Shown here piece by piece: positions 11,238 through 17,413 of a stretch of 64,000 nt of DNA. Each line of letters starts with the position of its first letter. The stretch's first letter is position 1. Origin of the DNA: Escherichia coli O157:H7 (GTDB taxonomy: Bacteria; Pseudomonadota; Gammaproteobacteria; Enterobacterales; Enterobacteriaceae); the NCBI RefSeq assembly GCF_013167455.1, contig NZ_CP038328.1. One strand, written 5' to 3'. The position numbers were made by a program, and so were the translations under genes. The notes beneath the pieces are model-generated. The model was given only the letters and a program-made list of their open reading frames with translations. It ran no database searches and had not been told where the DNA came from.

Positions 11238-11270
11238 AGACCGGGTGGTATTACCACCCGGTTTGGATTT
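11238..11270 (+). terminator. Hairpin terminator between convergent ysgA and metE
   Basis: Inverted repeat accgggtgg / ccacccggt followed by a T-rich run on the + strand, immediately after the ysgA stop. Confidence 0.5.
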
Positions 11271-13531
11271 TACCCCCGACGCAAGTTCTGCGCCGCCTGC
11301 ACCATGTTCGCCAGTGCCGCGCGGGTTTCTGGCCAGCCGCGCGTTTTCAGGCCACAGTCCGGGTTGACCCACAGGCGCTCTGCCGGAATGCGTTTTGCCG
11401 CTTTCTTCAGCAAGGCTTCAATCCATTCCACGCTCGGTACGTTTGGCGAGTGAATGTCATAGACGCCTGGACCGATTTCATTCGGATAATCAAACTCTTC
11501 GAACGACTCCAGCAACTCCATGTCAGAACGCGAGGTTTCGATGGTGATGACGTCTGCGTCCAGTGCCGCAATCGAATCCATGATGTCGTTGAACTCGCAA
11601 TAACACATGTGAGTGTGGATTTGTGTGTCATCTTTCGCCACGGCGGCGTTGATACGGAAGGCCTCCACGCCCCACTGGAGATATGCATCCCAGTCGCTAC
11701 GACGCAGCGGTAAACCTTCGCGCAGCGCCGGTTCATCAATCTGGATGATGCCAATTCCTGCGGCTTCCAGGTCCGCCACTTCATCACGCAGCGCCAGCGC
11801 AATTTGTTTGGCGATGGTTTCACGGCTGACATCTTCACGCGGGAACGACCAGCAGAGAATGGTCACCGGGCCAGTCAGCATCCCTTTCACCGGTTTATCA
11901 GTCATAGATTGCGCATACTTCGCCCACTCCACGGTAATCGGTGCCGGGCGACTAACGTCACCAATAACAATCGGTGGCTTCACGCAGCGGGAACCGTAGC
12001 TCTGTACCCAACCGTTTTGCGTAAAGACAAACCCGTCGAGGTGCTCGCCAAAGTATTCCACCATGTCATTACGCTCGGCCTCGCCATGTACCAGCACATC
12101 CAGTCCCAAACGTTCCTGTTCAACAATGGCCTGCCTGATATGTTCCGCAATGCCCGTGCGGTAGTTATTGGCGTCGAGATTGCCCTTTTTGAAATCCAGA
12201 CGCAGGGTACGAATTTCCGTGGTTTGCGGGAAGGAACCAATCGTGGTGGTCGGCCACGCTGGCAGTTTAAAACGCGCACGCTGGGCTTCAGCACGCACTT
12301 CATAGACATTCGCACGCTGGCTGTCCTGGGCGGTGATCGCCGCCAGACGCTTTTCTACCGCCGGATTATGTACACGAGTAGAGTGACGACGCGCCTGAAT
12401 TGGGGCGCTCCACTCTGCCAGAGCTGCCGTGTCACCACTGTTCAGCGCATCGCGCAGCAGTGCCAGTTCATGGCATTTTTGTAGGGCGAAGGCAAACCAG
12501 CTTTTCACTTCTGCATCAAGACGCGTTTCCACGCTCAGGTCGATGGGGCTGTGCAGCAACGAGCAGGAAGATGCCACCCACAAATCACGTTTGCCGACAA
12601 TGTCCTTAATTTGCACATATTTCTCAGTAAGATCGGCGCGCCAGACGTTACGACCATTGATCAGACCCGCAGACAGCAGCCAGTCAGAAGGCAGGCGCTT
12701 GTGCAGTTCAACAACGTCATCTTTACCATGTACAAGGTCCACATGCAGCCCCTGAACAGGCAGCGCAGTAATCGTGTCGAGATTTGGCGTTACGCCTTCA
12801 AAATAGGTGGTCAGCAGCAGTTTCACCTGTCCCTGGAGCGCGTCGTAAGCGGGTTTGTATGCGTCCAGCCACGCCTGTGGTAGTTCCAGTACCAGCGCGG
12901 GTTCATCAATCTGTACCCACTCGATGCCACGTTTCGCCAGTTCTGCCAGCACTTGCTGATAAACCGGCAGAATGTCGTTCAGCAGGCTCAGGCGGTCAAA
13001 CTGTTCACCTTTCACTTTCCCCAGCCACAGCCAGGTAATCGGCCCCAGCAGCACAGGTTTCACCTTGTGGCCCAGCGCCAGCGCCTCGTCCACTTCGTCC
13101 AGCAGCTGCGTCCAGGTCAGTTTGAACTGTTGGCCTTTAACGAACTCCGGCACCATGTAGTGATAGTTGGTGTTAAACCATTTGGTCATTTCCGCTGCCG
13201 CCGCAGGTTCGCCAGTCGGCGCACGTCCACGACCAATACGGAACAGGGTGTCGATATCTACCGAACCATCTTTGTTCTGATGACGCGCCGGAACGTTACC
13301 CAGCAGCAGACTGGTGGTCAGTACATGATCGTACCAGGCAAAATCGCCCACCGGCAGCAGGTCGATACCCGCTTGCTTTTGTTGATCCCAGTGACGAGCA
13401 CGCAATTCACGCCCTACCGCCAGCAGTTCTTCACGCGTGGAGTTCCCCGCCCAATAACTCTCTTGCGCTTTTTTCAGCTCGCGACGCAGGCCAACGCGAG
13501 GGAAACCGAGGGTGTGATTCAATATTGTCAT
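11270..13531 (-). CDS. metE: Cobalamin-independent methionine synthase
   Basis: 753-aa [33 protein letters not shown]... recognised as MetE. Confidence 0.97.
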
Positions 13532-13766
13532 TTTTCTTCCTCTAATTATATGTAAATCCTATGGATTTTGAATTTAGGGAAGGCGGCAAGTTTATTCATC
13601 CCCGGGAGCTTACTGAAGTAAGTGACCGGGGTGGAGAAACGCAGCCAACGCACCATAAATTTAAAAGACGAAGGATTTTAGCCGTCCAGATGTTTACACA
13701 TCCATAATTGGCGGTTACTGTATATTCCTCAAGCGCAAATTATTCATGCCGAAGTGAAGGACTTTC
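13532..13766. promoter_or_regulatory. Divergent metE/metR control region
   Basis: 235-bp AT-rich spacer between divergent metE and metR; in E. coli this region is known to carry MetR and MetJ operators; a met-box-like stretch agatgtttacacatcc lies near 13688-13703. Confidence 0.5.
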
Positions 13767-14720
13767 ATGATCGAAGTAAAACACCTGAAAACGCTACAAG
13801 CGTTGCGGAACTGCGGCTCTCTCGCAGCCGCTGCGGCGACGTTGCATCAAACGCAATCCGCCCTGTCTCACCAGTTTAGCGATCTGGAACAACGCCTTGG
13901 CTTCCGGCTATTTGTGCGTAAGAGCCAGCCGCTACGCTTTACTCCACAGGGGGAAATCCTGTTGCAACTGGCAAACCAGGTGCTGCCGCAAATTAGCCAG
14001 GCGCTGCAAGCCTGCAATGAACCGCAACAGACGCGCCTGCGCATTGCCATTGAGTGCCATAGCTGTATTCAGTGGCTGACGCCCGCATTAGAAAATTTCC
14101 ATAAGAACTGGCCGCAGGTGGAGATGGATTTTAAATCGGGCGTAACGTTTGACCCGCAGCCTGCGTTGCAGCAGGGCGAGCTGGATCTGGTGATGACCTC
14201 CGATATTCTGCCGCGTAGTGGCCTGCATTATTCGCCGATGTTCGACTATGAAGTGCGTCTGGTGTTAGCACCTGACCATCCACTGGCGGCGAAAACGCGA
14301 ATCACGCCGGAAGATCTCGCCAGCGAAACGCTGTTGATTTATCCGGTGCAGCGTAGCCGACTGGATGTCTGGCGGCATTTTCTCCAGCCCGCAGGCGTTA
14401 GCCCGTCGCTGAAAAGCGTCGATAACACCTTATTGTTGATTCAGATGGTTGCCGCGCGGATGGGTATTGCCGCGCTACCACATTGGGTAGTAGAGAGTTT
14501 TGAGCGCCAGGGTCTGGTGGTGACCAAAACCCTGGGCGAAGGCTTGTGGAGCCGACTGTACGCCGCCGTGCGCGATGGCGAGCAGCGTCAGCCAGTTACG
14601 GAAGCGTTTATTCGCTCAGCGCGCAATCACGCCTGCGATCATCTGCCGTTTGTGAAGAGCGCGGAGCGACCCACTTACGATGCACCCACAGTGAGGCCAG
14701 GATCACCAGCGCGCCTGTAA
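13767..14720 (+). CDS. metR: LysR-family regulator of methionine biosynthesis MetR
   Basis: 317-aa ORF with N-terminal helix-turn-helix ([28 protein letters not shown]); recognised as MetR. Confidence 0.95.
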
Positions 14721-15507
14721 TAAACGTTGGCCAGTGCGGCTGTTGGTGCCAGATAGCCAGGTTAACCAGCAGCCCTGCCGGAACGTGCATATTATTCATA
14801 ATGCCCAGCGTTCCGGCGTCTACTTGGGTTGCGCCGTAGTTCCACATAAAGTAGCCAATCCCGGAAGCCACCACGCCAAGAAACACCAGAATGCCCCATT
14901 GCAACGTGGTTTGCGGCATTTTCTGCGCATTTCCCAGCAAGAACCATGCAATTACCGCCACCAGGAACGCGCCAAGATAGAACCACGCAAAGGCGTTATG
15001 CTGCGGCATCGGGCGAGTTTCCATCAGGCGTTTGTAACCCACCATGCCGATGGCAAAAGTGATATTGGAGAGTTGCACCAGCAACAAGCCAGTCCAGAAA
15101 TGGTCGGTGACCTGATCATAGCGAATAATCCCGGCACCAATCACCGCCAACAAGGCACTAAAAGCATATCCCCAGCGCAGACGGCGCTTACTCATGATGT
15201 CATAAATCAGCGTGATGTAGAGCGGCGTCAGTACGGTGAACAGCAGCAGTTCGGAAACCGTCAGGTAGAGATAAGCGCGGAAACTCAGCATATACATCAC
15301 GCCGAGCTGCATCGCGCCCACCAGCATATACAGGCCGACTGTTTTCAGGCTATTGCCACGGGTACGCAGAAACGGCAGAAAAACGAGTGCCGCCAGGCCA
15401 ACGCGCACCAGCACCGCAAAATAGCTATCGACGTGCCCCGCAAGGTACTCGCCATAAAAGCTAAAGGAGAAGGCCCACAGAATCGTGGTGATGATAAGTA
15501 GCGCCAC
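14608..15507 (-). CDS. yigM: EamA-family inner-membrane transporter YigM
   Basis: 299-aa polytopic membrane ORF; 3' end overlaps the metR 3' end by 113 bp. Confidence 0.85.
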
Positions 15508-15582
15508 AATGGAAAACTCTTTGATTAACGAGTATCCATTGTAGCGAAGTATCAGGTTGACAACTGACCAAATAAAGAACGA

Positions 15583-16383
15583 TTACGATAAATAGAGTTT
15601 ACGCAGATAATGCGGCACCGCGTCGTCGGCATTAGTACCAATCACTTCCAGCTCGGGATGAAGGTCTTTCAGACGCTGGTGCGCACTGCCCATAATGCAG
15701 CCTTTCCCCGCCATCGACAGCATTTCGGCATCGTTCATCCCGTCACCAAACGCAATACAATCCTTCAGGCTGTAGCCCAGTTTCTTCGCCACCGCTTCCA
15801 GCGCATGGCCTTTTGAAACGCCGCCCGCCATCACTTCCAGACAGGTTAAGGTAGAGAAACTGACGTTGACGCGATCGCCCCAACGAGCGTTAATCGCCTG
15901 CTCCAGCGGCAGCAGTTGTTCATGGGAATCGCAGGTGAAGAACACTTTGCTGACGCCTTCCGGCTCCAGTAATCCAGGCTCATACAGCGCATATTTGAAC
16001 ACCGCTTCTTTAAAAAAGCGCATCTCTTCCGGGCGATGGCGATTCATAAACCATTCGTCGTCGCGATAAACGTTAGTAATGATGTCCGGATTGTCGTTGA
16101 CTACGCCAAACAGATCGCTGGCAATGTCGCGATCCAGGTTATGAGCAAAAATCAGATTACCATCCAGATCGTGAACGCGCGCACCATTGGAGGTAATCAT
16201 GTAAGACTTAATCTCCAGATTATCGCGAATTTGCCCCACATCAACGTGGTGACGACCGGTCGCAAACACAAAGTTGATGCCGCGCGCGGTGAGCAGCTTC
16301 AGGGGTTCTTTGGCGTAAGGGGATAATGTATGGTCGGGAGAAAGTAACGTGCCATCTAAATCAGACGCAACAACCTGGTACAT
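15583..16383 (-). CDS. yigL: HAD-superfamily sugar phosphatase YigL (Cof-like)
   Basis: Start set at internal Met MYQVVASDLDGTLL (HAD motif I DxDGT), 266 aa; the ORF track's upstream extension overlaps pldB. Confidence 0.85.
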   Translation of the reverse strand: MYQVVASDLDGTLLSPDHTLSPYAKEPLKLLTARGINFVFATGRHHVDVGQIRDNLEIKSYMITSNGARVHDLDGNLIFAHNLDRDIASDLFGVVNDNPDIITNVYRDDEWFMNRHRPEEMRFFKEAVFKYALYEPGLLEPEGVSKVFFTCDSHEQLLPLEQAINARWGDRVNVSFSTLTCLEVMAGGVSKGHALEAVAKKLGYSLKDCIAFGDGMNDAEMLSMAGKGCIMGSAHQRLKDLHPELEVIGTNADDAVPHYLRKLYLS

Positions 16384-16390
16384 AAGAAAT

Positions 16391-17413
16391 TTAAACCTCT
16401 GTAGAGCGGTTTCCGCTGGGTGAGTTATGCCTGTTGAAAAAATCAACGATGGCGTGGAGCGCAACTGAGCGCATTGCGTCCTTTTCAAAAAGGATCTCAT
16501 GGTACGCACCTTTAATTACCAGCGGTCGTCCCCCTTCGACAGGATGGCCCGCGGCGGTGCGGAGTTCACAAAAACGGTCATGAATGCGGTTATCCACCAC
16601 GCGTTCCTCTTCAGCCTGCAAGAGAAGCGTTGGCGTGGCGTCATCACCCGCACCGGCTAACACCTGTTCGCCAGCCAGAATACTTTCGCGTACCCAATGG
16701 TAGGTCGGCCCACCGACGCGAATCGTTGGGTCATCAGCATAGAAGCGTAAGTTACGTCGATATCGCTGTCTGCTGTGGGTCAGTACGTTGATAGCAAACG
16801 GCAACGCGCGCCAGCGCCCGGTGCCTATTGCATAGCCATCACGGAAACGTGGATGCGCTTCGGCCCAGTTGAGGATCTGCCGTGCCATAAATGACGGCAT
16901 ACGAATCACGATCCCAAACATTGGCGCAGTTAGCGCAATGGCGTCACATACACCTGGATGGCGTTGCAGAAATAATGTGGAGATCGCACCGCCCATCGAA
17001 TGTGCCAGTATATAGCGTTTACGCCACGGACCGGGCTGGACCTCCTGTTGCCAGAATGCCGCCAGATCATCAACATAATCATTAAAGCGATTAACATGCC
17101 CGAGATGCGGATCGGCTAACAGGCGACCGGAACGTCCCTGCCCGCGATGGTCGATGATTAAGACATCAAACCCCAAATGGAACAAATCGTAGGCCAGTTC
17201 CGCATATTTTACGTAACTCTCAATACGCCCCGGGCAGATGACTACCACCCGGTCATGGTGCTGTGCGCGAAAACGGACAAAGCGCACCGGAATGTCATCC
17301 ACACCAGTAAACTCTGCTTCATCACGCTGACGCCAGAAATCAGTCAGCGGTCCCATGGTAAAAGCAGCAAACGCGTTTTCTCTTGTTTCCCAGTCTTTTT
17401 GCTGCTGAAACAT
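16391..17413 (-). CDS. pldB: Lysophospholipase L2
   Basis: 340-aa ORF with alpha/beta-hydrolase GxSxG motif (AHSMGG); pldB-yigL order. Confidence 0.9.
   Translation of the reverse strand: MFQQQKDWETRENAFAAFTMGPLTDFWRQRDEAEFTGVDDIPVRFVRFRAQHHDRVVVICPGRIESYVKYAELAYDLFHLGFDVLIIDHRGQGRSGRLLADPHLGHVNRFNDYVDDLAAFWQQEVQPGPWRKRYILAHSMGGAISTLFLQRHPGVCDAIALTAPMFGIVIRMPSFMARQILNWAEAHPRFRDGYAIGTGRWRALPFAINVLTHSRQRYRRNLRFYADDPTIRVGGPTYHWVRESILAGEQVLAGAGDDATPTLLLQAEEERVVDNRIHDRFCELRTAAGHPVEGGRPLVIKGAYHEILFEKDAMRSVALHAIVDFFNRHNSPSGNRSTEV

Follow-up and report, generated by a model that had tools for sequence, protein, structure and literature searches.

The convergent genes metR and yigM (also named bioP) of Escherichia coli O157:H7 share 113 bp at their 3' ends, and this overlap is genuine and ordinary: it is the standard E. 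coli arrangement, already annotated and published. As to its origin, we consider it very probable that the overlap is an ancient by-product of two short 3' run-ons of unrelated housekeeping genes, and not a regulatory device. Both-frame conservation is limited to positions 14656-14672, and the remainder of the shared DNA follows one frame at a time. All positions are those of the window, the whole stretch of 64,000 nucleotides that was analysed.

The overlapping genes and their distribution

The locus comprises the following features.

13767-14720, + strand: metR coding sequence, LysR-type regulator of 317 aa (ORF, Pfam, NCBIfam, RefSeq)
14608-15507, - strand: yigM = bioP coding sequence, EamA/DMT biotin transporter of 299 aa (ORF, Pfam, TIGR00950, RefSeq)
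14608-14720, both strands: metR–yigM/bioP convergent overlap, 113 bp shared (ORF list and sequence)

The original prediction had named both genes, placed them and given their overlap as 113 bp, all of which is borne out by the ORF list, the sequence, RefSeq and family models. MetR contains an HTH_1 domain (PF00126, residues 5-63, E = 4e-18) and a LysR_substrate domain (PF03466, residues 86-288, E = 3e-48). It scores 741.4 bits against the NCBIfam MetR equivalog NF011950 (cutoff 382), in a match that pairs residues 1-317 with profile positions 1-317, and it is identical over residues 1-92 to the MetR DNA-binding domain in PDB 5fo5. The gene starts at 13767 (+), divergent from metE (11270-13531, -), and ends in a TAA at 14718-14720, with another in-frame TAA directly behind it at 14721-14723. 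On the opposite strand, yigM runs from a GTG start at 15507 to a TAA stop at 14610-14608 (TTA on the + strand, 14608-14610). Its product matches EamA (PF00892) twice, the last match ending at residue 275, scores 309.9 bits against TIGR00950 (cutoff 230.2), and bears the RefSeq product name 'bioP: biotin transporter'. YigM had no match among PDB sequences, and its AlphaFold model, built from an 11-sequence alignment, is uninformative (mean pLDDT 45). Genetic work places YigM in biotin transport, as a yigM deletion shows synthetic lethality with bioA and makes cells more sensitive to MAC13772, an inhibitor of BioA; deleting metR also abolishes YigM-dependent biotin uptake (PMC5120140). The overlap and its effect on deletion mutants were described in the same study (Côté et al. 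2016, PMC5120140).

Both stops lie inside the partner's ORF and the gene lengths agree with those of orthologues, as in a genuine convergent overlap. Because both ends of the overlap are stop codons, start-codon choice can neither make nor abolish it. It had been guessed that the layout would match the reference arrangement, and indeed RefSeq gives identical coordinates and a 113 bp overlap in a 100%-identical O157:H7 genome, and 113 bp in K-12 too. The same two RefSeq proteins (WP_000573621.1 and WP_001196238.1) occur in O157:H7 and K-12. In K-12 (NC_000913.3), bioP (yigM, b3827) occupies 4011076-4011975 and metR (b3828) 4011863-4012816, leaving an overlap of 4011863-4011975; the order is the same, with metE, metR and bioP converging, yigL and pldB, and there is no structural difference. 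The prediction had also allowed that metR or yigM might end sooner than its ORF; neither does so in E. coli. A 1.9-kb stretch across the locus is 100% identical to the O157:H7 chromosome, shows 97.2% DNA identity with K-12, and was found in 5,425 of 5,426 complete E. coli genomes.

Two observations concern neighbouring annotation and a single strain. The mechanical yigL ORF (15583-16509, 308 aa, GTG start) exceeds the annotated 266-aa yigL (15583-16383) and enters the 3' end of pldB (16391-17413); this apparent overlap is a matter of start-codon choice and is not real. Separately, in E. coli Z135-6 (NZ_CP159632.1) the metR-bioP stretch is split into two matching pieces that together cover only 42% of the query, and the annotation there reads 'hypothetical protein | LysR family transcriptional regulator'; this pattern of matches suggests a natural disruption of metR.

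Beyond E. coli, a scan taking one genome per species yielded 80 Enterobacteriaceae loci, or 82 with two annotated E. coli records. The overlap is kept in all 82, at 113 bp in 72, 116 bp in seven, 98 bp in two and 68 bp in one; the 72 loci combine the 113-bp overlap with protein lengths of 299 and 317 aa. Among the 80 species genomes alone it measures 113 bp in 70 and otherwise 68-116 bp. Two further divergent Enterobacterales contigs have overlaps of 113 and 98 bp. In Proteus mirabilis (Morganellaceae), where MetR is 69% and YigM 67% identical, the overlap is 86 bp because yigM stops nine codons sooner. The overlap is absent in Aeromonas caviae and Neisseria gonorrhoeae, where yigM is not adjacent and MetR is shorter (296 and 306 aa), and no YigM homologue of 51% identity or less adjoins metR. 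Judged by this distribution, the overlap is ancient and spans at least two families of Enterobacterales.

The search for outgroups had two by-products. The yigL-yigM-metR-metE loci in Logan assemblies SRR18107612 and SRR18107614 were rejected as a divergent outgroup, having 30% GC, systematic G-to-A changes and many in-frame stops; these contigs look like assemblies of bisulfite-converted reads. PLSDB files whole chromosomes as plasmids, including NZ_OL790811.1 (Proteus mirabilis, 4.08 Mb), NZ_AP026896.1 (Aeromonas caviae, 4.94 Mb), NZ_CP119142.1 (N. gonorrhoeae, 2.17 Mb) and several E. coli records. Such records served as outgroups here, but they can easily mislead statistics on plasmids.

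We also asked what chance alone would produce. In the overlap's antisense phase, the window's genes have 0.044 stops per codon, which gives a 37-codon open run a probability of about 0.17 per gene and about 0.03 for both, and a 15-codon run-on an unremarkable 0.49 or so. The window has seven convergent pairs, and the six others stand at -4, +39, +41, +44, +61 and +167 bp. Another convergent pair of long ORFs, at 2248-2251, shows a 4-bp overlap of the common short stop-stop kind.

Partition of constraint between the two frames

In the overlap, metR codon position 1 faces yigM position 1, position 2 faces position 3, and position 3 faces position 2, as follows from the coordinates. Substitution patterns were taken from an ungapped alignment of 70 species and expressed as entropies per codon position in each frame; the species are phylogenetically related and so are not independent samples, and the entropies carry no phylogeny correction. 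Three segments can be told apart.

14608-14655, metR-ruled zone: MetR 281-296 (end of the fold, conserved) against the variable YigM tail, 285-299 plus stop
14656-14672, doubly constrained core of about 17 nt: YigM W279-V-A-P-R-S284 opposite MetR R297-S-A-E-R-P302
14673-14720, yigM-ruled zone: YigM 263-278 (last transmembrane helix, WVHR motif) against the variable MetR tail, 303-317 plus stop

Per-codon tables give MetR 281-302 and YigM 263-284 as conserved, and MetR 303-317 and YigM 285-299 as variable. Over 14608-14672, metR wobble sites have a mean entropy of 0.56, against 0.09-0.12 at the other two positions, and variation in the metR-ruled zone sits at metR wobble sites, that is, at yigM position 2. 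Over 14673-14717 the pattern is that of the other gene, with an entropy of 1.03 at yigM wobble sites and 0.26-0.28 elsewhere. Across the core, nearly all three codon positions are invariant in the 70 species; even the third bases of metR CGA (R301) and CCC (P302), opposite yigM V280 and W279, are invariant in 70/70. Both CGA and CCC are seldom used in E. coli. The original prediction had stated that the overlap constrains both reading frames, and this is right for the roughly 17-nt core at 14656-14672; elsewhere it fails, with one gene dictating while the tail of the other drifts. On these patterns, the dual coding of the 113 bp appears mostly nominal.

Structural and comparative data point the same way for the tails. 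In the AlphaFold model of MetR (mean pLDDT 77) order ends at about residue 301, and residues 302-317, at a pLDDT of about 37 and without secondary structure, are predicted to be disordered. The regulatory-domain structure of N. meningitidis MetR (4ab5) aligns to E. coli MetR 87-296 only. Natural truncations occur in both proteins. YigM has 284 or 285 aa in a gut Enterobacteriaceae lineage and in Salmonella Gaminara, in variants that represent 42 and 66 member sequences, respectively, and it has 290 aa in Proteus; since the 284- and 285-aa forms end directly after the conserved WVAPRS motif, they are consistent with a dispensable tail. In three lineages MetR is 312 aa long. GTT and GTC, either of which would shorten MetR, are avoided at the yigM V268 codon, yet two lineages carry that very truncation. 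Going by these natural truncations, both tails appear largely dispensable.

If instead both C-terminal tails were functional, the whole 113 bp would be dual-coding DNA under selection in both frames, which we regard as unlikely. Overlap length is strongly conserved (113 bp in 72/82 loci), and a few tail residues are near-invariant across the 70 species: D305, P307, P311 and S313 in MetR, and E299, R291 and R293 in YigM. The retention of the three YigM residues leaves room for weak selection on that tail. P307, however, is dictated by YigM W274 and V275, and at most tail positions residues change freely, the underlying substitutions being synonymous for the partner gene. Wobble sites speak on both sides. 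Under the YigM tail, metR wobble entropy is about 0.72 once the 17-nt core is set aside (a hand average), mildly lower than the 0.91 of the adjacent metR-only stretch and the roughly 1.0 of most ten-codon blocks gene-wide; under the MetR tail, yigM wobble entropy is unreduced (1.03 versus 1.06 in yigM beyond the overlap). The existence of truncated forms of each protein also counts against functional tails, as does the MetR tail itself, which is predicted to be disordered and is missing from Aeromonas and Neisseria MetR. The mild reduction in metR wobble variation and the few near-invariant residues suggest that weak selection may act on both tails.

The reading we favour, passive run-on of two unrelated genes, would work as follows. 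The conserved cores would end at MetR P302 and at about YigM S284 and would abut, sharing about 17 nt. Past its core, each frame would read 15 further codons through the antisense of the partner's core until it met a stop. The yigM stop lies within the invariant metR codons F281-I282 and the metR stop within yigM codons 263-264, so that each TAA would be fixed by conserved codons of the partner, with the second metR TAA as a backup. The 15-residue tails would then drift passively, altered by each synonymous change in the partner. As each dispensable tail overlies the partner's essential end, a long antisense overlap would be nearly cost-free, and the arrangement could persist.

Transcript ends and RNA structure

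Since both coding regions span 14608-14720, the two mRNAs are complementary over at least 113 nt. Between 14300 and 15100 no intrinsic terminator was found near either stop, the sole match (14321-14333, +) lying inside metR at chance level, and the region between metR and yigM did not show the GC-rich hairpin with A-tract and U-tract of a bidirectional terminator. A promoter scan around the overlap and upstream of yigM gave nothing relevant. Within the overlap itself, RNA folding on neither strand departs from that of shuffled sequences (z = -0.03 and +0.61), and an Rfam scan of 13400-15700 at a permissive E-value found nothing in the overlap. The metE-metR intergenic region (13552-13726, +) gave two Rfam matches below threshold: Ysr49, at 27.7 bits (gathering 95), and the Vibrio V_AS5, at 26.7 (96). 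They probably reflect chance or a shared regulatory region.

Given the lack of an intrinsic terminator, Rho-dependent ends are most likely, with Rho ending transcription once ribosomes leave each stop. For the bioP strand, this is in line with published bicyclomycin data. Supplementary file 2 of Adams et al. 2021 lists a Rho termination region on that strand with its peak at K-12 position 4011704 (+), about 14879 in the window, and a Rho score of 5.07, at a resolution of 800-nt windows; coverage at the peak falls from 98 to 21 when bicyclomycin is absent, against a change from 300 to 326 when it is present. For the metR strand, on which Adams et al. 2021 list no Rho region, we infer the same. 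The Term-seq tables of Adams et al. contain no entry for metR or yigM, nor do the supplements of the p19 dsRNA capture study and the transcript-termini (TRS) study. Base composition past each stop offers two stretches as possible Rho loading regions.

14400-14600, - strand: C-over-G stretch in bioP-sense RNA past its stop (+ strand GC skew +0.14 to +0.27)
14800-14950, + strand: C-over-G stretch in metR-sense RNA, 80-230 nt past the metR stop (GC skew -0.21 to -0.22)

These features bear on whether the overlap is kept because it couples the two genes, by convergent transcription or mRNA pairing, in mutual repression that would set methionine regulation against biotin uptake. The original prediction had the overlap imply transcriptional interference or antisense effects; data in support of either were looked for and not found, the Rho region on the bioP strand being the one experimental hint. 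In favour of coupling, the two mRNAs cannot avoid being complementary over 14608-14720, the arrangement persists from Escherichia to Proteus, the genes have no insulating intrinsic terminator between them, and Rho appears to limit the bioP-strand transcription that enters metR. Yet synteny, together with stops locked by the partner's conserved codons, fully accounts for the conservation, and overlap length ranges from 68 to 116 bp with no compensation seen. Moreover, the p19 dsRNA supplements list neither gene, the literature yielded no report of reciprocal expression, and there is no obvious physiological need for anticorrelation. We therefore hold coupling to be very unlikely, and passive run-on remains our preferred account of the overlap.

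Structured RNA is found outside the overlap, 3' of the bioP stop, where two candidate stem-loops lie antisense to metR.

14552-14595, - strand: candidate stem-loop A in bioP-sense RNA, 13-56 nt 3' of the bioP stop, antisense to metR codons 262-277
14504-14537, - strand: candidate stem-loop B (CCAGGGUUUUGGUCACCACCAGACCCUGG) in bioP-sense RNA, antisense to metR codons 246-257, no U-tract after it

The 120 nt at 14488-14608 (-), antisense to metR codons 241-281, have a mean z of -3.4 over 16 species, with 94% of values below -2, and no other window or strand across 14368-14928 approached this mean in those species. In Proteus the same region has z = -4.5 on the bioP-sense strand versus -1.1 on the opposite one. 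Pairing is kept in 93.7% of cells on the bioP-sense strand versus 80.9% on the opposite strand for stem-loop A, and in 94.9% versus 86.4% for stem-loop B. Under codon-preserving shuffles, z for 14488-14608 is about -1.7, with control windows at -0.8 to +0.5; covariation in both stem-loops is weak and metR wobble entropy is barely lowered, indicating that the conserved MetR protein sequence accounts for much of the signal. What is left hints at some selection on RNA. It is possible, though doubtful, that the stem-loops form a selected RNA element. Such an element might shield the 3' end of a bioP mRNA terminated by Rho or, as structured antisense RNA, modulate metR; the 3' UTR of the neighbouring gene would then shape codon choice in metR. 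As Dar and Sorek reportedly described in 2018, Rho-terminated mRNAs are trimmed at the 3' end back to a protective stem-loop. The bioP strand resembles such mRNAs in having a Rho-dependent region and conserved stem-loops without a U-tract, but differs in that its candidate stem-loops sit within the coding sequence of another gene.

Structure on the + strand past the metR stop was dropped as a candidate, since its z of -3.7 in E. coli falls to a mean of about -1.3 across species. A near-perfect inverted repeat at 14776-14818 (GCCGGAACG ... CGTTCCGGC), in yigM codons 231-245, an invariant motif, contributes to the z of -3.7 of 14700-14820 (+) in E. coli; across species this excess of structure is not maintained.

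Related arrangements and deletion phenotypes

The metR–bioP pair is of the same type as the long convergent overlaps already catalogued (Rogozin et al. 2002; PMC2478687), being tail-to-tail, longer than 60 bp and formed by well-characterised genes. Long overlaps have been judged credible in the convergent orientation only, and most long convergent ones are conserved among very close species only (Pallejà et al. 2008, PMC2478687). Unlike those cases, the metR–bioP overlap reaches at least two Enterobacterales families; the pair is not in the supplementary overlap lists of Pallejà et al. There is practically no chance that a frameshift or sequencing error lengthened the 3' end of one ORF: long overlaps in annotations arise most often from such artefacts (Pallejà et al. 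2008, PMC2478687), which counts in favour, but comparative data refute this one, as the stops are identical in about 5,400 E. coli genomes and 80 other species, both proteins match full-length curated family models, convergent overlaps are independent of start-codon choice, and metR deletion knocks out YigM function (PMC5120140).

Excludons and bidirectional terminators (ExcludonFinder, PMC12288877; RNAP collision model, bioRxiv 2022.10.23.513370) likewise involve convergent genes, with transcripts that must overlap, as those of metR and bioP must. The present locus differs in that the coding regions themselves overlap and no hairpin-plus-U-tract bidirectional terminator is found. An excludon would call for overlapping transcripts with reciprocal effects on expression, typically dependent on RNase III. 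The locus offers a clean textbook case of a long, conserved antisense overlap, and one that would not surprise a specialist.

Its practical consequence lies in genetics. Single-gene deletion of metR or yigM damages the neighbour: metR knockouts behave as biotin-transport mutants (PMC5120140), and yigM knockouts made to the Keio deletion design would be expected to lack MetR residues 289-317. Because deletions hit the neighbour, phenotypes assigned to metR or yigM in genome-wide screens need care.
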